NCBI GenBank assembly: GCA_965247625.1
Contig: CBDFHL010000006.1
Location: forward strand, 34,755-98,754
DNA: 64,000 nucleotides
From: Methyloglobulus sp.
GTDB lineage: Bacteria > Pseudomonadota > Gammaproteobacteria > Methylococcales > Methylomonadaceae
Direction: 5' to 3'
Shown piece after piece: positions 18,994-43,548 of the stretch. Each line of letters starts with the position of its first letter. The stretch's first letter is position 1. A program made the position numbers and the translations under genes. Below the pieces are notes generated by a model. It did no database searches, was not told where the DNA came from, and worked only from the letters and a program-made list of their open reading frames with translations.

Positions 18994-20280
18994 ATGGTGA
19001 CTGTAAAAAAAGTTGAAGAGATTAATGCAATTGTAAAAAAGCATAAGGCCATTATTAATTGCGAGAACTCATTGCCTTTAGCTTCTAGGAAAATTTTTAA
19101 TATTCTGTTGTTCTTAGTTAAAGACAGATTCGGGAAAGATCTTGAGCATCACGTTTCCGAAAGTGATGTGATTTCTCTTTTAAATAAGACAGATAGGGAT
19201 ATTACAAACGCAAGGATCAACTATAAAAAATTGGCTTCCACAGTTATTGAATACAATATATTAAATAATGAAAGGGACCATCTTAATGGCGTTGGAACCA
19301 TGTTGGCTCCTGCGGTTATAAATAAAACCAAAAAAACCTGGAATTTTTCCTTTCCGCCAAATATTGTCCAATGGGTTCAGGATCCAAATTCATTTGTATT
19401 TTTGGATATTACGACACAAGAGCGTTTCAGCTCTAAATATTCACAAGCACTATGGGAAATTTGTATAGGTAGCTTAGAAGATCAGTTAGAGTCATATTTC
19501 TCAGTGAAATTAGATGAATGCCGTATTTTAATGTGCGGCAAAGATAATCATCAAATCTATAAGGATTTTAAACGCCGCGTTGTTATGACTGCAATTAATG
19601 AGATTAATGAAAAATCACTTTTGCATGTTGACTTATATCAAGAAAACAAAGAAGGGAGGAAGGTGACTGAATTAGTATTCTTTGTGACAAGAGAAGAATA
19701 TATTGAACCAAAACAACTGATTTCCAATGATGACTTGCTTGAGAAAATGGTTGAGGTATTTGGCATAACTGGCAATGTGGCCAATAAAATTATTAATACT
19801 TATGATAACGAACATATCTTAAGGAACTTGGACTACACCGAACAACAGTTTAAAAAAGCCATTAAAAATAAAAAAGAGAACCAGTTTAATGTTGGTGCTT
19901 ATGCAACTAGTGCGATCATTAAGGATTATGCCCCTAAACAAGCAAAATTATTATCTAGGGTTATCGAGGAAAAAGAGCATAAGAAAAGTACTGAATTAGG
20001 TTTAATTGAGTTAAATAAGAAAAATGATGATGAACTTGCAAAAAAAATCATGAAAAATTATGAAAAAATTGAACCTGTCTTGCAGCAGGGGTTAAAGACT
20101 GAGTTTGAAAAAAATGGAATTCGTGGCCCAATTAAAAAGCTTTTTAATTCTGAAGGATGGGGTTCTAAGCAAATAAACAACCATTTTTTTCTATTTCTTG
20201 CATCGCAAATAGAGCAAGGCAGAAAAGGGCAGGGCTATGATCAAATTAATGAATTTCTAGTTAAAAGTGCAACGCACTAA
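18994..20280 (+). CDS. Iteron-type plasmid replication initiator (Rep_3/RepB-like)
   Basis: 428 aa, directly downstream of the iterons. The N-terminal segment ..NSLPLASRKIFNILLFLVK.. resembles winged-helix Rep initiators. AAGGA SD sequence. Confidence 0.75.
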   Translation: MVTVKKVEEINAIVKKHKAIINCENSLPLASRKIFNILLFLVKDRFGKDLEHHVSESDVISLLNKTDRDITNARINYKKLASTVIEYNILNNERDHLNGVGTMLAPAVINKTKKTWNFSFPPNIVQWVQDPNSFVFLDITTQERFSSKYSQALWEICIGSLEDQLESYFSVKLDECRILMCGKDNHQIYKDFKRRVVMTAINEINEKSLLHVDLYQENKEGRKVTELVFFVTREEYIEPKQLISNDDLLEKMVEVFGITGNVANKIINTYDNEHILRNLDYTEQQFKKAIKNKKENQFNVGAYATSAIIKDYAPKQAKLLSRVIEEKEHKKSTELGLIELNKKNDDELAKKIMKNYEKIEPVLQQGLKTEFEKNGIRGPIKKLFNSEGWGSKQINNHFFLFLASQIEQGRKGQGYDQINEFLVKSATH

Positions 20281-20303
20281 AAATTGGCTATAGCCAATTT
20301 TTA
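20278..20303. repeat. 26-bp perfect palindrome TAAAAATTGGCTATAGCCAATTTTTA, containing copy 2 of the 16-bp core
   Basis: It starts inside the rep stop codon and sits between convergent rep and kfrA. It could also act as a weak bidirectional terminator. Confidence 0.6.
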
Positions 20304-20328
20304 TGTATATTACTGAAATATAACTAAA

Positions 20329-21237
20329 TTAATTATTGTGGGATTTTGGGTGTTTTTTTATAACGTTTTTATTTAAAAGGAGCCGTATTTTTTCTTCTCT
20401 GGCGGTGAGTTCTTTTTGTAATTTAGCTTCGATTAGGATCAGTCCAGCTTGTTTCAATTTCTCATCTGCATTTCGGCTTTCAAGTCCCATTATAATTTCA
20501 TTGTTTTTGCTGATTTGTTTGGCCATTGAGTCTAATTTGACTTGAAGTAATTTACTGCTTTGCTTGCTGCGGTCAGTTTCTGATTTCAGGCGATCAATTT
20601 CAGTCTTGAATTGCTGTTTAATAGTTTCTTTTTCTTCTTCGATACGTTTGATTGCCCACTCGTGTTCTTTAGTGTACTGCTTTTCAATCCAATTGTATTT
20701 TTCACGTTCTTGTCGTAGTTGCTCGGATAAAACGGCATTATTTTTTTCAAGTTTAGATGCAGCTGTATGGCAATACTCATTCTTTTCTATCAAATTTGTT
20801 GATTCAATCGATATCCGATTTATTTCTTTTTTTAGATGGTGTATTTCTTCCTGATATTTTTGTGCTGTCAGTTGCACCAGTTCTCGAATTCTAGATGTTT
20901 CTTCATTTAATGTTTTTTCTTTGTTCTCTAATACTGCCTGTTTGTTTTGTAAAATAACGGTTTCTTCATCAAAAGTTTTTTTTGCTTCAAGTAATGCTTC
21001 TTCCCATATGCCAGTCATTGCAGAAATTAGATGCTTTGGCATCGCCGGGTTGTGGGGTTGTGATTTATTTATTGCTTGCGATAAGTTGAGTTTCCAGTCC
21101 TTAATGGCACTAGAAATTGTCGTTGGGCTGTTGACATTAATAATCGGCTTGATTGATTCAATGGTAGGCATTAATCCGGTTTTTAAAAAATAAGCTTCAC
21201 ATGCTTCATATGCCAGGGTGTAAGTGGTTTTTTTCAT
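20329..21237 (-). CDS. kfrA: KfrA-like plasmid DNA-binding coiled-coil protein
   Basis: N-terminal KfrA_N-like segment (AYEACEAYFLKTGLMPTIESIKPIINVNSPTTISSAIKDWK), followed by ~220 aa of heptad-rich E/K/Q coiled coil. Confidence 0.75.
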   Translation of the reverse strand: MKKTTYTLAYEACEAYFLKTGLMPTIESIKPIINVNSPTTISSAIKDWKLNLSQAINKSQPHNPAMPKHLISAMTGIWEEALLEAKKTFDEETVILQNKQAVLENKEKTLNEETSRIRELVQLTAQKYQEEIHHLKKEINRISIESTNLIEKNEYCHTAASKLEKNNAVLSEQLRQEREKYNWIEKQYTKEHEWAIKRIEEEKETIKQQFKTEIDRLKSETDRSKQSSKLLQVKLDSMAKQISKNNEIIMGLESRNADEKLKQAGLILIEAKLQKELTAREEKIRLLLNKNVIKKHPKSHNN

Positions 21238-24300: not shown

Positions 24301-24564
24301 ATGATCTCATTCGAATTTGACGAAACCAAGAGCCAAGCCAACTTTTCAAAACATGGCATCAATTTTATGGAAGCACAGATGTTATGGCATGATCCCATGC
24401 TGCTGGAAATTCCGGCAAAAACATTTGATGAACCCAGATACTTGGTAATAGGGCTTATCGAGGGCAAACATTGGTCAGCCGTCATTACATACCGTGGTAA
24501 AGCTATTCGAATTATTTCTGTCCGTCGTTCACGAATTGAAGAGGTAACATTCTATGAAAGCTAA
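24301..24564 (+). CDS. brnT: BrnT-family (DUF497) type II toxin
   Basis: FEFDETKSQANFSKHGINFMEAQMLWHD... matches the BrnT N-terminal signature. 87 aa. Confidence 0.88.
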   Translation: MISFEFDETKSQANFSKHGINFMEAQMLWHDPMLLEIPAKTFDEPRYLVIGLIEGKHWSAVITYRGKAIRIISVRRSRIEEVTFYES

Positions 24565-24805
24565 TTTGTTTGATACACAATTTGATGAGGGTATCGATGT
24601 CACTGTGTCCCTCGATTTATCCAAAGCAAAACGCGTTTTGCTGGAGCAAAAACGGGTAAATGTTGATTTTCCTGCATGGATGATTGAATCGTTGGATCGG
24701 GAAGCAGGAAAAATCGGTGTTACTCGACAATCTATTATCAAGGTTTGGTTAGCCGAACGCCTTGAAGAATCAGTTTCTAAAAAACCGATCAATCGGATAT
24801 CTTGA
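24554..24805 (+). CDS. brnA: BrnA-type (CopG/RHH-like) antitoxin
   Basis: 11-nt overlap with brnT. KRVNVDFPAWMIESLDREAGKIGVTRQSIIKVWLAERL is the BrnA pattern. Confidence 0.85.
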   Translation: MKANLFDTQFDEGIDVTVSLDLSKAKRVLLEQKRVNVDFPAWMIESLDREAGKIGVTRQSIIKVWLAERLEESVSKKPINRIS

Positions 24806-25633: not shown

Positions 25634-26662
25634 TCACTCAATATGTGTTACTAGATTCCGCCCATCATGTTTAGAACGGTACAAGGCCTTATCCGCGCGT
25701 TCAAAAAAATCTGATATCGGTTCTTTTAGGCGATAACGGGTGACGCCAATAGAAACTGTTATACGGCAGATTTCTTCTTGGCTTTTGGCGCGTTTAATTC
25801 GGGTGTTCTCAACAATTTGCCTAATACTTTCTGCCAGCTTTACTGCACCCTGCAAATCGGTTTCTGGTAATAGCACGCAGAATTCCTCGCCGCCATAGCG
25901 GGCGGCGGTATCCTTGCCTTTAGTTTGGTTGTTTAAAGTATCACCAACTACTTTAATAACATTGTCACCTAGTAAGTGACCGTGAGTGTCATTGATGTTT
26001 TTGAAGTTATCGATGTCAATCATCAAAATACATGGTGAAGATGTCAACTCACCTATAGATGAAATTGCCGCTTCGATCGCTTTAGTTAAGCCTTTGCGGT
26101 TGACCAGTCCTGTGAGCGAATCAGTCATCGCTTCTTCACTTATTTTTTCCAAGCGCTCTTGCAAGGCATTAATTTCGTGCCGGCTATCTTGAATTTGCTG
26201 GCGCATCATGCCCATTGAGGCTTGGATGGATTTCGTGCTTGCTAATAAGTGGGTCACTATTGTTTCAAGTGAACTGTTGGGTTCTGCAAGTTCCTTTTCG
26301 CTACGTTTTAAGGTGTGGCCAAATTGATTTACATTTTCTTCTGTTAGGTTAGCAGAGTTGGCTAAGGATGAAATGATATCAATCAGATCAGCTTTTGATT
26401 GTTGAAGATGGGTAAGGTCATACTCGGATAAATAAACTTTAAACCAATGCGCCATCATGGGGTCTGTTAACTCAACTTTTCCCTGGATAGCTTTGTCGAT
26501 CTCTCTTTTAAGTGCCGGATGCGCCCCCAAGAGATATTCATAACATACAGTATAGTTCACCGGGTTTGCTGACAGGTGATGAGCACCAATAAAAGCAATG
26601 GCTTGCTTGAGCATTTCTCGGCTTTCTAAAGCCGATTCAGGCGGTCTTGAAATAACCATCAT
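25634..26662 (-). CDS. Diguanylate cyclase (GGDEF) with N-terminal helical sensor region
   Basis: Active-site RYGGEEFCVLLP, ..DIDNFKNINDTHGHLLGD.. and the C-terminal ..ADKALYRSKHDGRN. Confidence 0.92.
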   Translation of the reverse strand: MMVISRPPESALESREMLKQAIAFIGAHHLSANPVNYTVCYEYLLGAHPALKREIDKAIQGKVELTDPMMAHWFKVYLSEYDLTHLQQSKADLIDIISSLANSANLTEENVNQFGHTLKRSEKELAEPNSSLETIVTHLLASTKSIQASMGMMRQQIQDSRHEINALQERLEKISEEAMTDSLTGLVNRKGLTKAIEAAISSIGELTSSPCILMIDIDNFKNINDTHGHLLGDNVIKVVGDTLNNQTKGKDTAARYGGEEFCVLLPETDLQGAVKLAESIRQIVENTRIKRAKSQEEICRITVSIGVTRYRLKEPISDFFERADKALYRSKHDGRNLVTHIE

Positions 26663-27368: not shown

Positions 27369-27518
27369 ATGAAAGATATGAAAAGAGATGTTTTGATTGG
27401 TGCAATGTTTTTGTTTGGTATTTGTGGGTTTATTTCCGGTGAGTTTATTGCCTCCACGATGCTATTTGCTTCAGCGGCTATCTACAGTAATGTGGCATTA
27501 AATAGGCAATACAGTTAA
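27369..27518 (+). CDS. Hypothetical 49-aa membrane peptide
   Basis: Below the ORF-track size cut-off. The sequence is ATG MKDMKRDVLIGAMFLFGICGFISGEFIASTMLFASAAIYSNVALNRQYS TAA. GGAG lies ~10 nt upstream, and it is followed by the hairpin at 27548-27583. Confidence 0.35.
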   Translation: MKDMKRDVLIGAMFLFGICGFISGEFIASTMLFASAAIYSNVALNRQYS

Positions 27519-27796: not shown

Positions 27797-29290
27797 ATGC
27801 AGGGTATCTTCAAACTCCCCAAAATTTTTGGATTAATTTTCATTGTAGCAGTTCTGGTAAATTCCCCATCTATTGCGGCAGCGACGCGTCATGCGTTGTC
27901 GGATCAGCATATTCGTGACGTTGTTGAAAAGCTAATGCACGAAAAAAATCAGAAAATCGAACAACTGGAAGCCCGCATCAAGCAGTTGGAAACTCACCAG
28001 GCCGTTCCGCAAACGGCTACACAAGCCCAATCGGCTAATAACCAAACACAAACCAATAGCGATAAGCCCAAAGAAGCAAGCGCTCAGAACCTAGCATTGC
28101 CACCAGGTACCGTTGCCAAAAATAGCCACAGTGATTCGACCATCATGAGCAAGCTAGGTGATTTGGGGGAAGAAATTGAAGAATTAAAAGAAGGCGCAAA
28201 AGAAAAAGGCCTGGATATCAGCGGTTTTTTTGACGTGAATGCCAAAACCGATAATTCAACCGACCAGACGTTCAGCGTTGGTTCGGTCGAGCTGGATTTG
28301 GAATATGCTTACAATGATCGTTTTGCCGCCAGCTCGGCGATTGTTTTGTGCGGCAATTCTTCGGGTGTCGATTCTGCCGCGCCGGCCGCCATCTTCTGTG
28401 GCGGTAGCGGGCCGGGTGGCTTAGGCGGCGGCCAAGCCGGGATTGCAGTCGCGTTAGCTGACTTCCATATGTTCGATAATTCTATACCGCCAAGGGGCCG
28501 GATTTTCAATAACCAAGGCTTTCATATCCAGGCTGGACGCTTTGATATTCCGTTCTCCACCGATTACCAGAATTTCGCCAATACTGATCGGGTGACTGTC
28601 ACGGCGCCTATTACCACATCCAGGATGCAATTCGGCGGATTTAACGGTGACGGGTTGCGGTCTTACGGTTCCTGGAAATTCTTAAACTACTCCGTATTCT
28701 GGACAGACGCTATGTTCGCCAATGATGGCACGTCGGTAGGTGGCCGTCTGGGGCTAGCACTGGGCCAAAATAATTACCGTAGCCATAAAAATAACCCAGA
28801 AGGTATTGAGGCTGGCGTGTCGTATCTAGCCGATTTGGACAAAAACTATAATTTGCGTCATGCGGTTTATGGTGTCGACTTGAGCTTGGGTTACAGTTTT
28901 CTCCGCTTACAAAATGAATTATTACTGACCCAAGCATATAACAATTTTGAAGTTACCGACGATGCTGGCAATATCATCGCAGATTACGGCAAGCCCCACC
29001 AATTAGGCTACCATTCGACTTTAACGGCAGATTTGGAGCGGTTTATCGGCTATCCAGTGATTACCTTTATCCGTTATGGCCGATGGGAGCCGAAAGCCCG
29101 TAAAGCAGAGGATTTTGATGGCACACTTGTCGATATAAAGAATATTTCAGCATTAACGGTTGGCCTAAATTATCGCTTTAGTGAATATCTCAAACTTAAG
29201 TTCGAGTATACCGATTCGTTGGGTTCATCCACGACAGAACGTTTTTTTGATAAGCAATTGGGTATAGCCCAGATGGTCGTGTCTTTCTAA
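27797..29290 (+). CDS. Porin-like outer-membrane beta-barrel protein with N-terminal coiled coil
   Basis: Signal peptide (..VNSPSIAAA), then a coiled coil (EKNQKIEQLEARIKQLE). The region after that is rich in alternating G/Y/F residues. The C-terminal ..GIAQMVVSF ends in Phe, as in OMP barrels. Confidence 0.7.
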   Translation: MQGIFKLPKIFGLIFIVAVLVNSPSIAAATRHALSDQHIRDVVEKLMHEKNQKIEQLEARIKQLETHQAVPQTATQAQSANNQTQTNSDKPKEASAQNLALPPGTVAKNSHSDSTIMSKLGDLGEEIEELKEGAKEKGLDISGFFDVNAKTDNSTDQTFSVGSVELDLEYAYNDRFAASSAIVLCGNSSGVDSAAPAAIFCGGSGPGGLGGGQAGIAVALADFHMFDNSIPPRGRIFNNQGFHIQAGRFDIPFSTDYQNFANTDRVTVTAPITTSRMQFGGFNGDGLRSYGSWKFLNYSVFWTDAMFANDGTSVGGRLGLALGQNNYRSHKNNPEGIEAGVSYLADLDKNYNLRHAVYGVDLSLGYSFLRLQNELLLTQAYNNFEVTDDAGNIIADYGKPHQLGYHSTLTADLERFIGYPVITFIRYGRWEPKARKAEDFDGTLVDIKNISALTVGLNYRFSEYLKLKFEYTDSLGSSTTERFFDKQLGIAQMVVSF

Positions 29291-29411
29291 TATGAATAGC
29301 CTTGTCATTCCGACCACGGGTAGGAATCCTTGTGCCTTTAGTGATCGACATGGCAATGAAGGTTGAGATAACAAATAACGAAAAATAGATGCTAAGAAAT
29401 AATCAGCCAAT

Positions 29412-29915
29412 ATGAAACCCAATAGTTATTTCACAATTATACTTATGTTGTTATGCCTTTGCGGGGCAGGGCGGGTGTTTGCGCAAAACCCGCATGAAAT
29501 ATCACCGCAAAACCATGACATTGATTGTGCCAGTTGTCATCTTGAAAAACCACAAGTGGCCACTACGGGATTATTGAACAGCAAAAATCATCAAGCTGAC
29601 CCTGCCTACTTCAAAGCTGATGGCATCGAGATGTGTTCCGGTTGTCATGACAAAGACGATGGTCACAAAGTAGGCCTAAAGTTAGAGTTTGATGTCCCTG
29701 CTGATATGCCGTTGGGGACAAAAAATAAACTGACCTGCTTAACCTGCCACTATACTCATGGCAGCCTGAGTAGTAATAAACCGCAAGCTAGCGTGAGTTT
29801 TATGGATAGCATGCTGAATGCAGAACGGTTACACAAAAGTTTCTTACTGCGCCGCAATAATGCCGAAGGCGACTTATGCTTAACCTGTCATGAGGTCAAA
29901 GAGGGATCAAAATAA
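29412..29915 (+). CDS. Periplasmic tetrahaem c-type cytochrome
   Basis: Signal peptide ending VFA/QNP. Four CxxCH motifs: CASCH, CSGCH, CLTCH, CLTCH. Confidence 0.88.
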   Translation: MKPNSYFTIILMLLCLCGAGRVFAQNPHEISPQNHDIDCASCHLEKPQVATTGLLNSKNHQADPAYFKADGIEMCSGCHDKDDGHKVGLKLEFDVPADMPLGTKNKLTCLTCHYTHGSLSSNKPQASVSFMDSMLNAERLHKSFLLRRNNAEGDLCLTCHEVKEGSK

Positions 29916-30481
29916 TGTCTACGAATGAAAATAAACGCCGCAAACTCTTTATTAATAAAACCTTTCAGGGTCGTTTTATTTTAAATGTGTTTCTCTTGAT
30001 TTTACTGTCAAGCCTTTGCTCGGCCTTGCTGATCTACTGGATTACGGGGGGTGATTTACAAGCTGAATTGCAAACCGCACATGGCAGCATTACCAATGCG
30101 CTTGATCACCTCGGCATTTCGATATTTATCGGTAACATGGTGGCGTTGCTGGTGGCTGGCATCATTAATATTTTTATGGTGTTGTACGCTTCCCATAAAA
30201 TTGCTGGCCCCTTGTACCGTTTTGAGAAATTGTGCGAACAAATTGGTGATGGCCAATTGGACGGCATCACTACACTCAGACAGGGCGACCAACTCCAAGA
30301 TATCGGACGGGCATTTAATGAGATGGTCACCAAATTGCGTCACCGTAAAGAACAGAAATCAATTCTCATCGCCCAATTAAACCATGCGCTTGAAAGCTTG
30401 CAACAAGACCAGGCGGTTGCCGCCAATTATTCAGAGCAATTAGAGCAGGTGCGCCAGGCCCTTACCCAGTTACAGGAGTAG
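29915..30481 (+). CDS. HAMP-only membrane protein (2 TM + HAMP, no output domain)
   Basis: Its start overlaps the cytochrome stop (TAATG). It has two TM helices, then HKIAGPLYRFEKLCEQIGDGQLDGITTLRQGDQLQDIGRAFNEMVTKL (HAMP pattern), then a short coiled coil. Confidence 0.75.
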   Translation: MSTNENKRRKLFINKTFQGRFILNVFLLILLSSLCSALLIYWITGGDLQAELQTAHGSITNALDHLGISIFIGNMVALLVAGIINIFMVLYASHKIAGPLYRFEKLCEQIGDGQLDGITTLRQGDQLQDIGRAFNEMVTKLRHRKEQKSILIAQLNHALESLQQDQAVAANYSEQLEQVRQALTQLQE

Positions 30482-30578
30482 GTTATCCCTTCTGAAGCAT
30501 AATTTTTTGGAATTTTAATAGAGATCCTGTTTTTCAACACTATCCACGGTTTAAAAACAATACCCATTAGGAACCGCA

Positions 30579-33500
30579 ATGTTTAAATATTTAAGCTTTA
30601 AAGCCCGCATACTATTAGGCTTTGGCACGGTGCTGCTGCTTATGGTGGCGATGGCGTTGTTTAGTTATTTAAATGATGTAAAGGGCGAAGCAGCACTTAA
30701 TAATATTGATACATTAACCTTACCTAATGCATTAGCTGTCTCTGATATGGTGAAGGATATCATACAGGTTCAACAGTTTTTGACCGATGTGTCAGCGACC
30801 CATAATACAGGTGGTTATGCAGAAGCTGAGGCGTATGCCCAAGCATTCAAAAAAGGCCTGGAATATTTTCGTAACCAAAAAGCGGGCGATACGGAACATT
30901 TAAAAAATTTAGTCGCTCTTGGGCGTGATTTCGATCAGTTTTATGCGGATGGTAAAAGGATGGCAGCGGCGTATTTAAGCGGTGGCTTAGAAGCCGGCAA
31001 TCCAATTATGGAAGAATTTGATAAATCATCGATCAATTTATCTACCCGTATGGAAGCGCTTAGGGCCGCTGAAGTCAAAGATGCAACAACGCATGTCCAT
31101 GCGTTGACTGAATCAACCCAAACGATAACCCACATACTGCTTGGGCTTGTCTTGGTTAGTATTGTGGTTGGCTTGGCTATAGTGTATTACTTAACCGATT
31201 ATCTAAATAATCAACTCGGTGTTGACCCTGTATTTGCCAAAGGTATTGCTAAAGAAATTGCCAAGGGTGACTTTAACCGGGACATCCGCTTAGAACCCGG
31301 CGATACCAAAAGTTTATTGGCTGCATTAAAAAATATGCAACAACAGCTGCGCGAACGGATGAAACAAGAACAGGACATGCAGCAACAGTTACGCGAGAGG
31401 ATGGTGCGCGAAGCCAAAGACAAGGAAAGTGCCTTGCGTGTCAAGATGGCGTTGGATAAAGCCTCAGCGAATGTCATGCTGACCGATGAAAACTATAACA
31501 TCATCTACATGAACGAGTCGCTCACAACGCTTTTCCGTAAACTTAATAACGATTTTAGTAGGGAGTTGACTGGCTTCAATGCGAACTATCTACTGGGAAC
31601 CAATATCGATATTTTCCATAAAAACCCGGCACATCAACGTGCGATGCTGGATGGTTTAAGTTCAACCAGTACAGCGAGCTTTGTATTGGGCGGCCGGCAT
31701 ATGTCGGTAGTGGTAAGTCCCGTTATCGATGATATGGGGCATCGGATCGGTACCGTGGCGGAATGGCAGGATCGCACTGATCAAGTGAAAATAGAAAATG
31801 AAATTAAAGCCATTGTTGATGCGGTTAAAAATGGAACGCTTAATCGCCGTTTGGAAACAGCCGATAAAACCGGGTTCTTTCAAGCTATCAGCACCAATAT
31901 TAACGACCTGACAACAGTAATTGAACATGTTTTTTCTGATATTGCTGATGTTATGCACAGTATGGCAGAGGGAGACCTTACCAACAGGATGACCCATGAT
32001 TACGAAGGTGTTTATGGCCGTTGCAAAGCCAATATCAATACTACTATCGACAAATTACAACAGCGTATTGAACGGGAAACCATAGAAAAAGAAGGTGCGC
32101 TACGCATCAAAATGGCACTCGATAAGGCCTCGACCCATGTCATGATGGCGGATGACCAGCATAATATCATTTACATGAACGATGCACTCCACGCGCTGTT
32201 TAAGGGGATGCAAAATGAATTGCAACGGGAGTTGCCGCAATTTGATGCAAGCAAGCTGATTGGCTCCAACCTTACTCTGTACCATAAAACAGCCCAACCC
32301 AACCTTAGCTTGGACTCGCTACAGGCCACTGTTAAAGCCAAGCTAACTTTGGCTGGGCGTTATATTGATGTGGTGGCCAATCCCGTGTTGGAACCTAACG
32401 GGCGACGCATCGGTACAGTGGTGGAATGGCAAGACCGTACGCGTGAAATAAAAATTGAAACTGAAATTAAAACCATCGTCGATGCGGTTAAAAGCGGTGA
32501 TTTGGATCAACGCTTGAACACGGCAGACAAAACCGGATTTTTCGGGACGCTCAGCACTAATATTAATGAACTGACAGCCGTTATTGAAAATGTGTTTTCC
32601 GACATTGCCGGAATTATGCGTAGCATGGCCGAGGGTGACCTGACTAACCGTATCACTAATGATTACGAGGGTGTTTATGGTTACTGTAAGGACGACATTA
32701 ATGGCACACTTGATAAATTGCGCGAAGCGTTTATCCAAATTGAGGAAGCATCATCTTCTATTAGCCTGTCTTCCGATGAAATATACAGCGGTAATGAAGA
32801 CTTGTCTAACCGTGCTGAGCAACAAGCCGCCAGTCTTGAAGAGACCTCCTCCAGTATGGAAGCGCTGACCGACACAGTTAAGCACAATGCCGAATACGCA
32901 CAGCAAGCCAACGATGAGGCGGCTCAGGCACAGCTACTGGCTGAACAGGGTAGCCATGTGGCGAGATCAGCTGTTAATGCCATGCTGGAAATCAACGATA
33001 GCAGCAAAAAAATTGGCGATATTATTGGTGTTATCGATGAAATTGCCCTGCAAACTAATATATTGGCGCTTAACGCCGCCGTGGAAGCGGCCCGTGCCGG
33101 CGAACAAGGCCGTGGCTTTGCGGTGGTCGCCAGTGAAGTGCGCAACTTAGCGCAACGTTCGGCAGAAGCGGCTAAGGAAATTAAAACCCTAATCAGTGAT
33201 TCGGTGGAGAAAGTTGATGATGGCAGCAAGCTGGTCAGTGAGGCCGGCAGCTCACTTAATGAAATTGTTGTCGGGGTCAAGCAGTTGAATAGCATCATCG
33301 CCCAGATTGCATCTGAAGGCGATCAACAATTTCAAGGTATCAAACAAATTAACTTAGCGGTCGCCCAAATGGACGATATTACCCAACAAAATGCGGCACT
33401 TGCTGAACAAGCTGCCGCAGCTAGTTTGTCAATGAATGAACAAACCCAACATATGCGTAAATTATTGGCATTTTTTAAACTGGGTAACCAATCAATACCG

Positions 33501-33611
33501 CTGCTTAATGCCGTGCAACATGATATCCCAGTGGTCAAACTGAATGCGCCTAAAAAGCCAAAACTGGTCAGTAGCCATAGCCGTAATGATCAAGGGTGGG
33601 AAGAGTTTTAG
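30579..33611 (+). CDS. Methyl-accepting chemotaxis protein with periplasmic helical sensor and duplicated PAS-HAMP-HAMP modules
   Basis: MCP hairpin motif [40 protein letters not shown]. Two ~223-aa internal repeats. C-terminal pentapeptide GWEEF. AGGAA SD sequence. Confidence 0.93.
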   Translation: MFKYLSFKARILLGFGTVLLLMVAMALFSYLNDVKGEAALNNIDTLTLPNALAVSDMVKDIIQVQQFLTDVSATHNTGGYAEAEAYAQAFKKGLEYFRNQKAGDTEHLKNLVALGRDFDQFYADGKRMAAAYLSGGLEAGNPIMEEFDKSSINLSTRMEALRAAEVKDATTHVHALTESTQTITHILLGLVLVSIVVGLAIVYYLTDYLNNQLGVDPVFAKGIAKEIAKGDFNRDIRLEPGDTKSLLAALKNMQQQLRERMKQEQDMQQQLRERMVREAKDKESALRVKMALDKASANVMLTDENYNIIYMNESLTTLFRKLNNDFSRELTGFNANYLLGTNIDIFHKNPAHQRAMLDGLSSTSTASFVLGGRHMSVVVSPVIDDMGHRIGTVAEWQDRTDQVKIENEIKAIVDAVKNGTLNRRLETADKTGFFQAISTNINDLTTVIEHVFSDIADVMHSMAEGDLTNRMTHDYEGVYGRCKANINTTIDKLQQRIERETIEKEGALRIKMALDKASTHVMMADDQHNIIYMNDALHALFKGMQNELQRELPQFDASKLIGSNLTLYHKTAQPNLSLDSLQATVKAKLTLAGRYIDVVANPVLEPNGRRIGTVVEWQDRTREIKIETEIKTIVDAVKSGDLDQRLNTADKTGFFGTLSTNINELTAVIENVFSDIAGIMRSMAEGDLTNRITNDYEGVYGYCKDDINGTLDKLREAFIQIEEASSSISLSSDEIYSGNEDLSNRAEQQAASLEETSSSMEALTDTVKHNAEYAQQANDEAAQAQLLAEQGSHVARSAVNAMLEINDSSKKIGDIIGVIDEIALQTNILALNAAVEAARAGEQGRGFAVVASEVRNLAQRSAEAAKEIKTLISDSVEKVDDGSKLVSEAGSSLNEIVVGVKQLNSIIAQIASEGDQQFQGIKQINLAVAQMDDITQQNAALAEQAAAASLSMNEQTQHMRKLLAFFKLGNQSIPLLNAVQHDIPVVKLNAPKKPKLVSSHSRNDQGWEEF

Positions 33612-33739: not shown

Positions 33740-34363
33740 TTACGAGAACAAACTCTCTTCACTCACGTTAGCTATTTCCTCATTACACAAACGTTTGATA
33801 TGTTCCTGTTCGCGATCGATGATGGTGTCGTTATGTAGCCGTTTCAATTTTTTGACTTTGACTGTGCCTTGTCCAGGAAAGAAATAAATCTTACGCGGAT
33901 ACTTCCCGAGTAAATCTTCAGCCACAATCGGTATGCCTTCGTGTTTTAGGTAATGATGCACAAAAGCTGCATTACGCTCGCCAACTTTATCTACCGTGAA
34001 GCTTTTTAGCAGATTACCGCCGCCAAATATTTTGGCTTCGAGATTTTTGGGTTGTGCCCCCATCTCAAGCAACTGGTTGATGAGCATGTCCATGGCGAAC
34101 TTCCCATAGCGTGCCGAGCTGTTGTTAACAGTTTGATTAGCACCGTCATCGTCATTGAAAGGCAGCATAAAATGATTCATCCCGCCAATACCATTGACTT
34201 TATCGCGAATACAGGCAGCTACGCACGAACCCAGCACGGTAACGATAAGCATGGGTCGTGCTGTCGCATAATATTCGCCAGGTAAAATTTTAACGGAATC
34301 GATCTTGAAATGATTATCGTAGTAAAAATTGGGTGCTCGCGGTTGGTCGTACAAATGCGACAT
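33740..34363 (-). CDS. cheD: Chemoreceptor glutamine deamidase CheD
   Basis: LGSCVAACIRD catalytic-Cys context. ~200 aa, adjacent to cheR. Confidence 0.9.
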   Translation of the reverse strand: MSHLYDQPRAPNFYYDNHFKIDSVKILPGEYYATARPMLIVTVLGSCVAACIRDKVNGIGGMNHFMLPFNDDDGANQTVNNSSARYGKFAMDMLINQLLEMGAQPKNLEAKIFGGGNLLKSFTVDKVGERNAAFVHHYLKHEGIPIVAEDLLGKYPRKIYFFPGQGTVKVKKLKRLHNDTIIDREQEHIKRLCNEEIANVSEESLFS

Positions 34364-34386: not shown

Positions 34387-35250
34387 TTATTCGCCACTGT
34401 TGCCAAATTTAGGCTGACGCAGTGGCATAGCAAGTTCATAGACAGTTTGCCCGCGTAATTTGAATAAATCCGAGGCATGGTGCAAACTTTCTGAATGTCC
34501 GGCGAACAATAATCCGTGCGGCTCAAGCAGGGGTGCAAAGCGCTTCAGGATTTTATACTGGGTATCCTTGTCAAAATAAATCATAACGTTACGGCAAAAA
34601 ATAACATCGAACAACCCATTAACCGGCCATTGGTTATCGAGTAGGTTAAGCTGACGAAAGCTGATCAAATCACCTAATTCTTTACGGACTTTAACGTTAT
34701 TGGTGTTGTTACCCGAGCCTCTAAGGAAAAAACGTTTGAGGATATCGGGTGGTAGTTTTTCTACCCGGTCTATTGAATAAACGCCGGCTTTGGCTTTGTT
34801 TAAGACATTGGTGTCAATATCGGTAGCTATAATTTCTACCGGTGGTTTATAGGTATTAAAAGCTTCAACCATACTCATTGCTATCGTGTAGGGTTCTTCA
34901 CCGGTAGACGCCGCAGAACACCACACCCGCAAGGGGCGCTTGCGCACGCTTAGCACATGGCTTTTGAGTAACGGAAAATGATGGGGTTCCCTGAAAAAAG
35001 CGGTTAGGTTAGTGGTGAGTGAGTTGATAAAGACTTCCCATTCCTCATCTTGCTGCTTCTCAACCAGTGACAGATAGTCCCCAAATGTTTTTAAGCCGGT
35101 GGCACGTAACCTACGCGCCAAGCGGCTGTACACCATATCCATTTTGCTGTCGTTAAGCTTGATGCCGCTGTGCTTATACAGCATGCTACGAATCCGTTCG
35201 AAATCAGCTGATGTGAATAAAAATTCTTTCTGTTCAGGGTCTCTGCTCAT
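34387..35250 (-). CDS. cheR: Chemotaxis methyltransferase CheR
   Basis: VWCSAASTGEEPYTIAM SAM-binding signature, plus IFCRNVMIYFD. Confidence 0.94.
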   Translation of the reverse strand: MSRDPEQKEFLFTSADFERIRSMLYKHSGIKLNDSKMDMVYSRLARRLRATGLKTFGDYLSLVEKQQDEEWEVFINSLTTNLTAFFREPHHFPLLKSHVLSVRKRPLRVWCSAASTGEEPYTIAMSMVEAFNTYKPPVEIIATDIDTNVLNKAKAGVYSIDRVEKLPPDILKRFFLRGSGNNTNNVKVRKELGDLISFRQLNLLDNQWPVNGLFDVIFCRNVMIYFDKDTQYKILKRFAPLLEPHGLLFAGHSESLHHASDLFKLRGQTVYELAMPLRQPKFGNSGE

Positions 35251-35370: not shown

Positions 35371-38262
35371 TTAAAACTCTTCCCATTCATCATTATTGTG
35401 TTTGCTCGGTTTTGATGGGCTCATCGCTAACTTTAGCGCCGGCTTGGGTGTTATGACCGAGAGATTGGTACGGCGCGGTTGCATCGGTGACCTGATATCG
35501 GAATCCATGCGGAACTGGGCAACCGTCTGCGCCAAGGTCTCCGCCTGCTCTTCCAGAGATTCAGCCGCGGCAGCGGCTTCTTCCACCAACGCGGCATTTT
35601 GTTGGGTCACTTCGTCCATTTGGTTAACCGCCTGGTTAACTTGTTCAATACCGGAGCTTTGCTCAGCGGAAGCGGAAGCAATATCCGCCATAATATCGGT
35701 GACTTGCCTTACCGAGTTTACAATGTCGTCCATAGTCCGGCCGGCTTCACCGACCAGTTTGCTGCCATCCTCAACTTTTTCCACCGAATCGCTGATTAAG
35801 GCTTTGATTTCTTTAGCTGCCTCTGCCGAGCGTTGCGCCAAATTACGGACTTCACTGGCGACCACCGCAAAGCCGCGGCCTTGTTCGCCGGCACGGGCCG
35901 CTTCCACCGCCGCATTAAGTGCGAGGATATTGGTTTGTAAGGCAATGCCGTCAATCACACTGATAATATCGACAATCTTTCTGGCGCTTTCATTAATGGA
36001 AACCATAGTATCAACAACTTGCTGCACCACGCTGCCGCCTTTGCTGGCAACCTCCGAAGCGGTTAATACCATTTGGTTCGCGTGTCGGGCATTATCGGCA
36101 TTCAGCTTAACTGTAGAGGCGAGTTGCTCCATACTGGAGGCGGTTTCTTCCAAACTTGCTGCCTGTTGTTCAGTACGGTGCGACAAGTCGGCATTCCCCG
36201 CAGAGATTTCTTTAGCCGCTGTACTGATCGAGTCGACAGCCGATTTAACGGTGATAATGGGCGTAACAATCGTTTCTAGGGTGGCATTAACGCCTTCGAC
36301 AATTTTGCGGAAGTCGCCCTCATGCTTGCTGGCATCGGCACGGGTCTGGATGCGCCCGTCCAGGGCCGCCTCTGACAGCAGTTTAGCGTCGTCAATCAGC
36401 GCATTCACCGCATCAATGCAGGTATTGAGGTTATTTTTGATGGTGTTGAAATCACCGCTGTAACGGTCAGTGATTTTAGGTGGGATGTCGCCATGGGCGA
36501 TCCGTTGGACATAACCGGCGGCGACGTTCAATGGGCCAACGACAGCATCAAGGGTAGCATTAATGCCAGCGATCATATCCTTAAACGAATAGCCGAACTT
36601 GCCGGCATTTGCTCGCGCGGACAATTGCCCGGATTGCGCTGAAATAGCGAGTACGGTAATTTCTGACTGGATGGATTCTAGGCTGGCTTTGACACCGTCT
36701 ACGGCCGCAGTAATTTGTCCTTTCTTGCCTGGAAGCCTATCCATATCAATAGAAAAATCGCCTTTACCGTATTGTTGGACAACTTCAACTACCCGGTTTT
36801 GCAAGGCAATATGTGATTTAACTAGGTCGTTGACGTTGCCTGCCATCACGCCAAATTCGCCTTTGAACCGTTCGGCGGCGATTTCAACATCAATATTGCC
36901 AAGATCATGCTCATTCTTGACATAAGCGCAAGAGTCGATAACACCTTTCATCGTCATAGCAAGATAATTGAGGCGCTTTTTTAATTCGGCAAAATCACCT
37001 TTGTATTCCGCATTTAACTTGCCGGACATATCGCCCTGTGAATAGTTTTTAATCTGATCTATGGTTTCTTGTATGGGGACGACGATGGCATCCAGGGTAA
37101 AATTAATGCCAGCAATGATTTTACGGAAATCACCCTGGTGGCGGTTGGCGTCGGCACGGATAGACAAGTTACCTTCCTGAGCCTGTGCAGCAAGTAAGTA
37201 AGCGTCTTCAATCAGGTTTTTAAGATTGGTGCGGACTTGCTCAATGGTTTCATTGATAAAGGCTTTTTTACCCGGCAATTGTTCTATCTGCATTTCGAAA
37301 TCGCCTTCTCCGAAGGCTTTGAACACACTGATGGCTTTTCTATTGCCGACAACATGGTCATTCACCATTCTATTTACACCTTCGGCCATCGTCCGATAAG
37401 CGCCATCAAACTTATTGGTGTCGATAACCACATCAATTTCGCCCCGTTCATGCTCGGCTGACATCTGATCCATTTCCGAGATGATATTTTTGAGCGTCCT
37501 CTGCATGAGTTGGGTTGCCTCGAGAATCTTGCTGATTTCATCCTTTCGGGTGTTTTCGATTTTAAAACCGATATCGCCGACAGACATGCGTTTTAGGTAG
37601 TTATATACCGTATCAATGGGTTTGGTGATTGCCTTGGTTAAATAAAAACCGGCGAACAGAGAACTTAACACGCCTAAGGCAATCAACGTCAAGGCGATGG
37701 TTCTGCCCTGGGCGTTATTGGCGCTGGCAGTATCGTACTCGATTTTGGCAACATCCACCTGCAGGCTGACCAGCTTGGACACTTGGTCTGAAATCGGGTC
37801 AATCACCGGGTACAGTTCATTGATAGTGAAGGCGGTGAGCGCTTCGGAATCTTGGCGCTGCATGATGCCTTTTAAGGTGGCGATTGATTGTTCCGCCTTG
37901 TGAAACAGGGGAATTGCGGCATCGACCAGTTTTTTTTCCTCGCCAGTGATGTAAGTGGAGGTGTATTTTTTCCAAGCTTGGCTAATGGTGCTCTCGGCCT
38001 GTTCAATATTCTGTAGGCCCTGCGTCCAGGTTAAATTTCCGTTACGGGTTTTATGGGCGGTATCCACAATGTTGACTGCATACATATCGGCCACAAACTT
38101 GAGGTCGCGTAAGGGCTCAACCCGGTCTATGTAAACCGTTTTAAGGCTGTCTACAGCTTGGCCGGTATTGCGTTGCCCTAAGTAACTAATTACACCCATT
38201 ATGGCAATTAGAAGGCCGATAACAGAGATCAGTCGATTCTTAATTGTGAGATCCTTAAACAT
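35371..38262 (-). CDS. Poly-HAMP methyl-accepting chemotaxis protein (963 aa)
   Basis: TM, periplasmic helical domain, TM, a canonical HAMP, then about nine further G[DNE]x..G[DE]F..[IV]N-type HAMP-like units, then the MCP signalling domain. C-terminal EWEEF. Confidence 0.92.
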
Positions 38263-41322: not shown

Positions 41323-43512
41323 TTAAAACTCCAGCCACTCATCATCGCTTGGGTTGCTGGGTTTAGCAGAAGCCGGGCGAGACACCGGTTTATAGGTTTC
41401 TAGTGGCATTTGTGCGGCGCGAGGCTTAAGGGGCGAACGGATATCGGATTCGAGACGGAATTGGGACACGGTTTGTGCCAGGGTATCGGCTTGTTCTTCC
41501 AGGGATTCAGCAGCGGCAGCAGCTTCTTCCACTAATGCCGCATTTTGTTGGGTCACTTCGTCCATTTGGGTGACCGCATGGTTAACCTGGTCAATGCCGG
41601 AACTTTGCTCAGCCGATGCCGCAGAAATGTCGGCCATGATGTCGGCAACACGTTTGACTGAGGCGACAATCTCGTTCATGGTCTTGCCTGCTTCGCTAAC
41701 TAACTTGCTGCCATCCTCGACTTTCTCAACCGAATCCCCAATAAGCCCTTTTATTTCTTTGGCAGCTGCTGCCGAACGTTGCGCCAGGTTGCGTACTTCG
41801 CTCGCTACCACAGCAAAACCACGGCCTTGTTCACCGGCACGGGCCGCTTCCACCGCCGCATTAAGCGCGAGGATATTGGTTTGTAAGGCAATGCCGTCAA
41901 TCACACTGATAATATCGACAATCTTGCGGGCGCTTTCGTTAATGGAAACCATCGTTTCAACCACTTGCTGTACCACGTTGCCACCTTTGCTGGCGACATC
42001 CGATGCAGTTAAAGCCATCTGGTTAGCTTGCTTGGCATTGTCGGCATTTTGTTTAACGGTAGATGCCAATTCTTCCATACTGGAGGCGGTTTCTTCCAGG
42101 CTGGCGGCTTGTTGTTCAGTACGGTGCGACAAGTCGGCATTGCCCGCAGAGATTTCTTTAGCCGCTGTGCTTATAGAGTCGACCGCGGATTTAACGGTAA
42201 TAATGGGTGTAACAATCGTTTCTAGGGTGGCATTAACGCCTTCGACAATCTTGCGGAAATCGCCATGATGTTTGGCCGCGTCGGCGCGGGTCTGGATACG
42301 CCCGTCTAGGGCGGCTTCAGAAAGTATAGAAATATCGGTGATCACTGCTTTTAAATTGCCGCGTACCTGCTCAATGGTATCGTTGATAAACGCTTTTTTG
42401 CCCGGAAATTTTTCCAACGGGGCATCAAAATTGCCGTCGCCAAACTCTTTGACGCAGGCCATGGCTTTTCGGTACATCACGATATGTCCAGTAACCATGT
42501 TATTGACGCCTTGCGCCATGGTTTTATAGGCACCCAGAAACATGTTGGTGTCGATATCTAAGTCGATATCGCCTTTTTCATGTTCGGAAGATACATAGTT
42601 AACGCTTTCGATAAAGCCCTTGAGGTTGCCCCGCAAGCGTTCGATAGTTTTGTTAAGAAAGGCTTTTTTGCCAGGGAACTGCTCCAAAGGTGCATCGAAG
42701 TTTCCTTTAGAAAATTCTTCAACGCACGCCATCGCCTTTTTCTTGGTTGCAATATGGTCGCCGACCATTGTATTGACGCCTTCGGCCATGCTTTTGAAGC
42801 CGCCCTGGAATTTGCTGGCATCAATGACGATATCGATATCGCCTTTGTCATGTTCATCCGACATCCGGTTCATCTCGGCGATAAAATTTTTGAGGTTGCC
42901 GCGCATTTGTTCAACAATAGTGTTGATGAACGCTTTTTTGCCTGGAAATTGCTCCAGTGGCGCATCGAAATTGCCTTCACCGATGGCTTTCACGCAGGCC
43001 AAGGCTTTTTTCTTGGTAGCAATGTGGTCGCCAACCATTTTGTTAATGCCTTCAGCCATGGTTTTGTAAATGCCTTGAAACCTGCTGGTGTCAATCACGA
43101 CATCAATATCGCCCTTGTCGTGTTCGGAAGCCATACGGTGCATCCCTTCGACCAATCCGTTCATCGAATCAACCATGGCGTTGATATTGTTTTTCAGGTC
43201 ACCGAAGTCACCCTTGAATTCTTGGGTGATTTTCTCCGGGATATCACCTTGGGAAATCCGTTCCAGGTAACTGTTGGTCAATTCCAGGCAGACTTTAAGT
43301 TCGAGGTTGGTATCGGTTTCACGCCGCCCTTCTGAAATGCGCCGCTCTTGGGTTACCAGGTTATTTTTTAATGCCCGCATAAGCGGGGCAATCACATCGT
43401 TGCCCGAAGTGTCGATCGACACCGATAAATCGCCAGCTGACAATTTTTCGATGATGCTTACCGCTTCATCGACGCGGGTTTGGACTGCATTTTTGTTGTT
43501 AAAAAAAACCAT
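41323..43512 (-). CDS. Soluble (no TM) poly-HAMP methyl-accepting chemotaxis protein
   Basis: No hydrophobic segment. It has repeated ..[42 protein letters not shown]...[18 protein letters not shown] units plus the MCP signalling domain. C-terminal EWLEF. The track start 43548 is TTG; ATG at 43512 has an AAGAGG SD sequence. Confidence 0.9.
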
Positions 43513-43548
43513 ATAAAAGCCTCTTAATTGTGCTTGAACTACCTGCAA

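Follow-up and report, generated by a model that had tools for sequence, protein, structure and literature searches.

What could bring together, in one gene cluster, a porin-like outer membrane protein (OMP), a small tetrahaem cytochrome c, a membrane protein with a HAMP domain and no output domain, and a methyl-accepting chemotaxis protein (MCP)? The question is raised by a locus in a 64,000-nt stretch of DNA from Methyloglobulus sp. (assembly GCA_965247625.1, contig CBDFHL010000006.1, positions 34,755 to 98,754), hereinafter the window, in which the initial annotation, made from the sequence alone, had placed four co-oriented genes. The open reading frames (ORFs) on the + strand match this layout, including the gaps of 121 nt between the OMP and cytochrome genes and of 97 nt between the genes for the HAMP protein and the MCP, and the single base shared by the stop codon TAA of the cytochrome gene and the start codon ATG of the HAMP-protein gene (TAATG). 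The answer that we propose is that the first three genes, hereinafter the trio, probably encode a haem-based sensor that steers swimming. With somewhat better than even confidence, we suggest further that the three proteins form one envelope-spanning sensory module which supplies chemotaxis with a redox or ligand input through haem c.

Conservation of the trio and its linkage to chemotaxis genes

The four genes are a real conserved unit, not a chance neighbourhood. When one genome per GTDB species was scanned with the porin alignment as the only query, and the 48 loci returned (denoted here by L numbers) were analysed by ORF calling and profiles, the porin gene was found to be followed by a gene for a 155-225-aa protein with exactly four CxxCH motifs and then by one for a HAMP-only protein of ~180-200 aa, in all loci with enough downstream DNA except L030 and L040. 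The full order is retained around distant porin matches (24-33% identity), namely, in one metagenome-assembled genome (MAG) each of Leptospirales, Acidobacteria, and Nitrosomonadales, and in three Gallionellaceae MAGs. A reciprocal metagenome scan, seeded with a diverse alignment of HAMP-only proteins alone, recovered the trio for ~25 closest relatives of the HAMP protein. Homologues of all three trio proteins at 50-97% identity are found in Methylobacter, Methylovulum, Methylomonas, Methyloglobulus, and Methylococcales MAGs, and the names of the 184 porin homologues point to Methylococcales. In Methylomonas albis, the four genes stand together in a different setting, flanked by LpxB and sugar-modifying genes at one end and by Uma2 and a P-type ATPase at the other. 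Pairwise identities within each of the three protein families vary in parallel (r = 0.93-0.96 between the matrices), which indicates that the three genes have been passed on together even where identity falls to 20-25%, and because the unit turns up in dozens of unrelated genomic settings, its arrangement goes far beyond what chance would give. The neighbourhood check that the initial annotation had called for, on a porin, a small tetrahaem cytochrome, and a HAMP-only protein, was thus strongly positive, with the gene order preserved in several phyla and the unit shared by methane-oxidising and iron-oxidising bacteria. In 53 complete trios, the spacing is typically -1 to +2 nt between the porin and cytochrome genes, and ranges from a 1-nt overlap to +12 nt between the cytochrome and HAMP genes. 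The porin-cytochrome spacer of the window is the longest of the 53.

An MCP gene, downstream, upstream, or divergent, lies no more than 1.5 kb from the trio in 52 of the 58 informative loci, and 45 of these 52 MCPs have the same type of N-terminal sensor as the window MCP. Loci without such an MCP mostly adjoin genes for CheA/CheW/CheY (L004, L034) or for PAS-GGDEF-EAL proteins (L009, L064, L046); the exceptions are the Leptospirales locus, which lies beside astacin and ferritin genes, the Acidobacteria locus, beside AcrB and a TonB-dependent receptor, and Methylomicrobium-type loci, beside a chromate transporter. As in the window, the trio is nearly always found beside an MCP or other chemotaxis (che) or cyclic di-GMP (c-di-GMP) genes, and its three genes are therefore the conserved core, which in Proteobacteria an MCP frequently joins as a fourth member. 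No kinase domain was found among the neighbours scanned, and, apart from the cytochrome gene itself, the loci scanned have no ORF with at least two CxxCH motifs next to the trio.

The proteins of the cluster

The cytochrome has the multihaem profile and the motifs of class III cytochromes c (c3/c7, with paired CxxCH), as judged by Pfam, in which Paired_CXXCH_1 scores 42.9 bits (cut-off 20.6) and Cytochrome_C7 26.8 (cut-off 24.8); haem attachment is predicted. All four CxxCH motifs are essentially invariant among 70 family members, and only three additional His residues are widely conserved, namely, H28 (60/70), H85 (68/70), and H116 (63/70). With four haems and three conserved distal His, one haem is left without a conserved distal His in the cytochrome itself; M74 and M131 are partly conserved in the same 70 sequences. 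Against the DmsE family, the cytochrome scores 25 bits, where the cut-off is 192, there is weak similarity to domain II/IV of MtrC/MtrF, and a PDB sequence search with the cytochrome profile returned no solved relative. The AlphaFold2 model of the cytochrome (pLDDT 53) was unusable and was kept out of the fold search.

In the inner-membrane HAMP protein, Pfam recognises only a HAMP domain (PF00672, 25.2 bits against 25.0), directly after the second transmembrane (TM) helix, and no output domain; the domain has the Pro/Gly of helix 1 and the acidic motif of helix 2 that are conserved in HAMP signalling proteins, and G98, P99, R122, and D125 are invariant among 99 family members. A HMMER search of 1.84 billion representative sequences yielded at least 1388 clusters at 50% identity (E <= 1e-10). 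Almost all of the best 150 family representatives are stand-alone proteins of 180-205 aa, with essentially no Rosetta-stone fusion to an output domain among them, and since the relatives are nearly all stand-alone proteins of ~190 aa, the output domain is natively absent. A split-off part of an MCP was considered and rejected, given that the linked MCPs have two TM helices, a sensor, and a HAMP domain of their own. Most of this HAMP-only family is not linked to a cytochrome, and the cytochrome-linked branch carries a signature in its periplasmic loop: His56 is kept in 67 of 68 cytochrome-linked members, and Arg or Lys is present in 28 of 31 unlinked paralogues, with the adjoining Ala55 showing the same branch-specific pattern. 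This cytochrome-specific His lends indirect support to the pairing suggested in the initial annotation, in which the cytochrome senses on behalf of the output-less HAMP protein. The genes for these two proteins are also the tightest pair in the cluster, with overlapping stop and start codons in many loci.

A larger sister branch of the HAMP-only family (L070-L130; for example, L089 4427-6145, L114 4445-6146, and L119 4490-6121) has a conserved trio of its own, in which a SurA_N-like lipoprotein is followed by the HAMP-only protein and a ~190-aa secreted protein without a Pfam match. This trio looks like another uncharacterised envelope module.

The AlphaFold2 model of the porin is of low confidence (pLDDT 55), best in the C-terminal half, which is the barrel, and served for the strand count and fold class only. 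It suggests long N-terminal helices (residues 25-67 and 116-136) followed by ~16 beta-strands, and the best Foldseek matches of the model are the diffusion porins OmpT, OmpF, OccD2, MOMP, and OprO, with 16 or 18 strands. Judging from the model, the protein would be a classical diffusion porin of ~16 strands, similar to OmpF and OprO. Pfam assigned the window OMP to no family, and a PDB sequence search with the porin profile gave nothing meaningful; among the homologues, Porin_O_P (PF07396) matches weakly in 5 of 26 (best E 3.7e-5), and one carries a precomputed PF07396 match. The core of the most conserved block (PRGR...H.Q.GRFD.PF..D.Q...GG.N..G.R) is kept across all phyla, even at 24-33% identity, and may resemble the Porin_O_P signature; the helix directly before strand 1 is universal among the homologues. 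The long N-terminal coiled coil and a glycine-rich loop with a Cys-Cys pair are limited to Methylococcales or a subset thereof. In the closest genome found (MAG MFD04716.bin.2.80, 92% porin identity), the porin gene (L019, 8001-9493) is split in two ORFs by a frameshift or an assembly error, and the other genes of the cassette are intact.

The window MCP has a signalling domain (MCPsignal, PF00015, 167.6 bits against 34.6) as well as PAS and HAMP_2 modules. As its sensor, it has a divergent four-helix bundle in the periplasm, which matches TarH and 4HB_MCP_1 weakly. Two motifs are conserved in the sensors of the linked MCPs, QQ[FW]LTD[VI]SAT[HR] (QQFLTDVSATH in the window MCP) and GG.EAGN, and both, judging from their spacing, appear to be located at the membrane-distal end; CxxCH motifs are absent from the protein. 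The PAS-HAMP region matches Aer2 of Pseudomonas aeruginosa (3VOL, E 6e-50), and the equivalents of Aer2 His234 (F/Y-H-K) and Trp283, counted on the alignment, are kept in both PAS modules, which are probably of the Aer2 type, with haem b and cytoplasmic O2 sensing. The window MCP is not an Aer2 orthologue, because its score against the NCBIfam Aer2 family (NF041847) is 580, below the cut-off of 1200. Furthermore, the cognate MCPs of Methylomonas (538 aa) and Gallionellaceae lack the PAS modules, which are therefore a lineage-specific addition. Thus, both PAS-like modules of the initial description are present, and of the Aer2 type, but they were rejected as a part of the conserved core, in which it is the four-helix-bundle sensor that is shared instead. 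Pentapeptides of the GWEEF type are recognised by CheR2-type methyltransferases, and the CheD and CheR encoded next to the window MCP are likely the modification enzymes for GWEEF-tailed receptors. The coordinates of all these features are collected in Table 1.

Table 1. Positions in the window of the cluster, its parts, and neighbouring features
Feature	Position (nt)	Strand	Description	Basis
OMP (porin-like)	27797-29290	+	497 aa, signal peptide, C-terminal ...VVSF	ORF
Porin parts			Residues: signal peptide ~1-28; periplasmic coiled coil 33-67; low-complexity linker 68-114; helix 116-136; ~16-strand barrel 139-497 (predicted), terminal Phe	
Most conserved porin block	28484-28654	+	Residues 230-286, IPPRGRIF..GFHIQAGRFDIPF..DYQ...P.TT.....GG.N.DG.R.	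Alignments
Porin-cytochrome spacer	29291-29411			
Tetrahaem cytochrome	29412-29915	+	167 aa, signal peptide, four CxxCH	ORF, Pfam
CxxCH motifs	29526-29540, 29634-29648, 29736-29750, 29877-29891	+	Residues 39-43, 75-79, 109-113, 156-160	
HAMP protein	29915-30481	+	188 aa	ORF, Pfam
HAMP-protein parts			Cytoplasmic, positively charged N-terminal motif KRRxxFIxKxFQxxF; residues: TM1 21-43; loop 44-66; TM2 67-91; HAMP 92-145; variable C-terminal helix 146-188	
Periplasmic loop of HAMP protein	30044-30112	+	No CxxCH; His56 at 30080-30082	
MCP	30579-33611	+	1010 aa	ORF, Pfam
MCP sensor	30675-31136	+	Residues ~33-186, followed by HAMP	
MCP PAS1	31437-31787	+		
MCP PAS2	32103-32453	+		
MCP signalling domain	32913-33383	+		
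MCP GWEEF	33594-33608	+		
CheD	33740-34363	-	Convergent with MCP	NF010013, 277.8 bits against a cut-off of 223
CheR	34387-35250	-	Convergent with MCP	Pfam/NCBIfam scan
GGDEF diguanylate cyclase	25634-26662	-	Divergent from module	
Rep3_N/Rep3_C initiator and KfrA	18994-21237	+ (initiator), - (KfrA)		
Two small overlapping ORFs	24301-24805	+	87 and 83 aa	
49-codon ORF	27369-27518	+	Small hydrophobic protein	
Neighbouring MCP	35371-38262	-		
741-aa ORF	41323-43548			

A haem-based sensor and its rivals

In the mechanism that we favour, the porin would admit a small solute into the periplasm or, alternatively, hold the complex under the outer membrane via its periplasmic helices, and the soluble four-haem cytochrome would switch its redox or ligand state. 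At the membrane surface, the output-less HAMP protein would read this state through its 23-residue periplasmic loop, where His56 is a candidate sixth ligand of, or contact for, the haem that has no conserved distal His. The HAMP dimer would then relay the signal to a partner encoded by a gene of its own, in most cases the adjacent MCP with the cognate four-helix-bundle sensor. Given its Aer2-type PAS modules, its GWEEF pentapeptide, and its wiring to the neighbouring genes for CheR, CheD, CheW, and CheY and to flagellar genes, the window MCP would integrate periplasmic redox with cytoplasmic O2 sensing. Direct contact between the cytochrome and the HAMP protein, possibly an axial-ligand switch, is suggested by the combination of the cytochrome-specific loop His with one haem devoid of a conserved distal His, and we advance it only tentatively. 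A more specific scenario, which we regard as improbable, makes the trio a dedicated redox-reporting device, with the porin and the cytochrome sampling extracellular or periplasmic redox species, such as Fe(II)/Fe(III), humics, NO, or O2-derived ligands, and with a redox-linked or ligand-linked switch of the axial haem ligand supplied by His56 that drives the HAMP dimer and so modulates the neighbouring chemoreceptor array. If true, this would amount to transmembrane signalling by haem-ligand exchange and would give redox taxis, or 'electrotaxis', its genetic basis in those methanotrophs and iron oxidisers that live at oxic-anoxic interfaces.

Several points weigh against an envelope-spanning chemotaxis sensor. 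Both AlphaFold2 models are of low confidence, and although gene order, conservation, domain identities, the branch-specific His, and the MCP linkage are shown, we infer every physical interaction in the mechanism, what the signal is, and which way it is passed. The conservation of His56 could mark a clade instead of a ligand, and M74 or M131 of the cytochrome could be the fourth distal haem ligand. A dedicated porin in a sensor is unexplained and is the part of the proposal that is accounted for least. In Leptospirales, Acidobacteria, and some Methylomicrobium loci, no MCP adjoins the trio, so that chemotaxis is perhaps not its universal output, and the SurA_N-like context of the sister branch is compatible with a non-sensing role in the envelope. 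Finally, L030 (683-4719) and L040 (8-3073) contain paralogous pairs of a porin and a tetrahaem cytochrome without a HAMP gene.

These two pairs are followed by genes with weak matches to HMA_2 (heavy-metal-associated) and DUF2202 (ferritin-like), at or below threshold, and a ferritin gene is also found next to the trio in the Leptospirales locus L044. Together, these neighbours provide a faint hint of a connection to iron or other metals.

The same genes enter into one of the rival explanations, to which we give a low probability, namely, that the trio is a periplasmic redox enzyme or detoxification unit, in which the porin would import an anion or metal (nitrite, hydroxylamine-derived species, peroxide, or Fe(II)), the cytochrome would convert it, and the HAMP protein would serve as a dock or as a regulator of something other than taxis. 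The weak affinities of the porin with the anion-selective Porin_O_P, the haem that has no conserved distal His, the HAMP-less pairs with the genes that follow them, and the ferritin gene beside L044 are all in keeping with such a role. However, the module includes no partner that could donate or accept electrons and no catalytic-site signature, the HMA_2 and DUF2202 matches do not exceed the Pfam threshold, and the near-universal MCP/che/c-di-GMP neighbourhood and the canonical HAMP fold suit signalling better.

It also appears unlikely that the MCP is the sole sensor and the trio a travelling module for envelope maintenance or OMP biogenesis, or that the cytochrome docks on the apex of the four-helix bundle of the MCP, with the HAMP protein acting as an assembly factor. 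The trio persists without an MCP in several lineages, its tightest pair, with codons overlapping in many loci, is that of the cytochrome and HAMP genes, and the loop His tracks the cytochrome, although the linkage of the HAMP sister branch to SurA_N-like lipoproteins of the chaperone type and the apparent position, judged from sequence, of the two conserved sensor motifs at membrane-distal loops of the MCP would be accommodated by this explanation.

Least probable of all is that the porin and the cytochrome make up a respiratory conduit like Mtr, Pcc, or Cyc2, which would carry electrons across the outer membrane to or from extracellular iron, manganese, humics, or electrodes, with the HAMP protein only regulating: a multihaem cytochrome gene directly follows a porin gene, the cytochrome shows the above weak resemblance to domain II/IV of MtrC/MtrF and to the DmsE family, the hosts live in gradients and include iron oxidisers, and a ferritin gene adjoins the trio in L044, but the ~16-strand barrel resembles classical diffusion porins, not MtrB, there are only four haems, in 167 aa, against eight to ten, the cluster lacks an extracellular or lipoprotein cytochrome and a quinol dehydrogenase, the constant partner is a HAMP protein of the signalling type, the neighbours are MCP, che, and GGDEF genes, and the porin-cytochrome cluster that was reported for Methylobacter in 2026 (PMC13322032) is another locus, of the MtrAB type and with a decahaem cytochrome. 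What the cluster has in common with MtrCAB, PioAB/MtoAB, Geobacter Pcc, and Cyc2 is a beta-barrel gene beside a multihaem cytochrome gene; these conduits have 20-26 strands, in a sheath large enough to enclose a cytochrome, except for Cyc2, which is small but fused to a single haem. On the grounds of barrel size, haem number, and partner features, we reject the membership of the trio in the Mtr/Pcc group, and the analogy drawn in the initial annotation is not supported. All three rivals account less well than an envelope-spanning sensory module for the size of the barrel, the number of haems, the lack of respiratory partners, and the signalling genes nearby.

The initial annotation knew of no characterised system of this composition, and our literature searches likewise found no description of the combination of a porin, a tetrahaem cytochrome, and a HAMP-only protein; the passages searched in the Gallionellaceae pangenome paper make no mention of the trio. 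By analogy, the trio would work most like the Cache_haem-HAMP (CHH) receptors in its logic, combined with indirect chemoreception in the manner of binding proteins. Indirect chemoreception via periplasmic binding proteins operates in Tar-MBP, Trg-RBP, and Tsr-LsrB, and in the present system, too, the four-helix-bundle sensor of the MCP may read a soluble periplasmic protein; the differences are that this partner would be a redox protein instead of a solute-binding protein and that three dedicated accessory genes are co-inherited with the receptor. Af1503 of Archaeoglobus is an output-less HAMP receptor and resembles the HAMP protein as a membrane receptor that ends in a HAMP domain, and DcrA of Desulfovibrio is a chemoreceptor with a haem-c sensor.

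The output-less haem-c CHH receptor of Pseudomonas azotoformans signals by docking a separate kinase on its HAMP domain (bioRxiv preprint of 2026, 10.64898/2026.05.25.727664), a precedent which makes the general logic of output-less haem-c HAMP signalling credible. Likenesses of the proposed mechanism to CHH include a periplasmic haem-c sensor, two TM helices, an output-less HAMP domain, and a genomically linked separate partner. CHH receptors, however, bind haem c in a Cache domain that is part of the receptor and signal to a Ser/Thr kinase, whereas the trio combines a short loop without CxxCH with haems on a separate tetrahaem protein, includes a porin, and has an MCP as the linked partner. 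The trio was thus rejected as a CHH receptor: it has no Cache_haem domain and shares only the HAMP domain without output. In Geobacter GSU0582 and GSU0935, one haem is attached covalently in the periplasmic PAS-like domain of the MCP itself (PMC3460858, PMC8396549). These receptors and DcrA are similar to the proposed module in using a periplasmic c-type haem as a redox or ligand sensor for chemotaxis, but the haems of the module are on a separate four-haem protein and the window MCP lacks CxxCH, for which reason a GSU0582-type haem MCP was rejected as well. In the 'congregation' model for Shewanella, cytochromes of extracellular electron transfer (EET) feed taxis (PMC5789149), so that cytochromes of the outer envelope are conceptually tied to MCP-dependent behaviour; unlike the trio, the genes involved are not one module and include no HAMP-only protein. 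Aer2 (McpB) of P. aeruginosa and Vibrio cholerae, with its Che2-type cluster, resembles the window MCP in the PAS-HAMP arrangement, the haem His and O2-stabilising Trp, the GWEEF pentapeptide, and the adjacent CheR and CheD, but is soluble, whereas the window MCP adds a transmembrane four-helix-bundle sensor. Haem-based sensing via an output-less HAMP receptor is known, and the trio would be a new form of it, with an unusual three-protein, two-membrane composition.

Methylococcales and Gallionellaceae inhabit narrow zones where the O2 gradient runs counter to that of CH4 or Fe(II), and how they find their position is poorly understood. If our proposal is correct, the module is a concrete candidate for redox-guided taxis at such gradients, one that occurs in cultured, genetically tractable Methylomonas species, and it would be a second, architecturally different case of HAMP-only receptors that signal via docked partners. 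The trio also provides the first context for one branch of the large uncharacterised HAMP-only family. Furthermore, a porin beside a multihaem cytochrome is not necessarily a conduit for EET, which matters for metagenomic surveys of 'EET genes'.

Surroundings of the cluster in the window

Downstream of the module, on the opposite strand, are the genes for CheD, CheR, three poly-HAMP MCPs, CheW, a CheY-like protein, and MotBA, followed beyond MotBA by the flagellar genes for FlgN, YcgR, FliJIHGF, FleQ, FliK, and FliM; no CheA or CheB was identified in the scanned part of the window. On the upstream side, there are the divergent GGDEF gene, a GAPDH gene, and a plasmid-type Rep3 initiator with KfrA. 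The GGDEF diguanylate cyclase gene is syntenic in L002 and L019, and GGDEF/EAL genes also border the module in L009, L046, and L064.

The Rep3 initiator and KfrA lie ~7 kb upstream of the module, and the syntenic 115-kb contig L002 encodes ParA, too (L002, 1-3105). In view of these genes, the whole chemotaxis and flagellar region may belong to a large plasmid or chromid of a Methylococcales bacterium; a megablast search of the region against a plasmid database gave no match. Promoter and terminator sites were no commoner in the scan than in shuffled sequence, so that the scan is uninformative on an operon. An Rfam scan of the cluster and of the 1.1-kb intergenic region upstream of it detected no riboswitch and no other family. 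This AT-rich region, which precedes the porin gene, contains the 49-codon ORF for a small hydrophobic protein, and a 52-aa gene was called at the equivalent place in L002 (7543-7701). Further upstream, the two small overlapping ORFs appear, from their sequences, to resemble a toxin-antitoxin pair. On the other side of the module, the MCP gene next to CheR and CheD ends in an EWEEF pentapeptide, and the 741-aa ORF encodes the third of the poly-HAMP MCPs, not a kinase.

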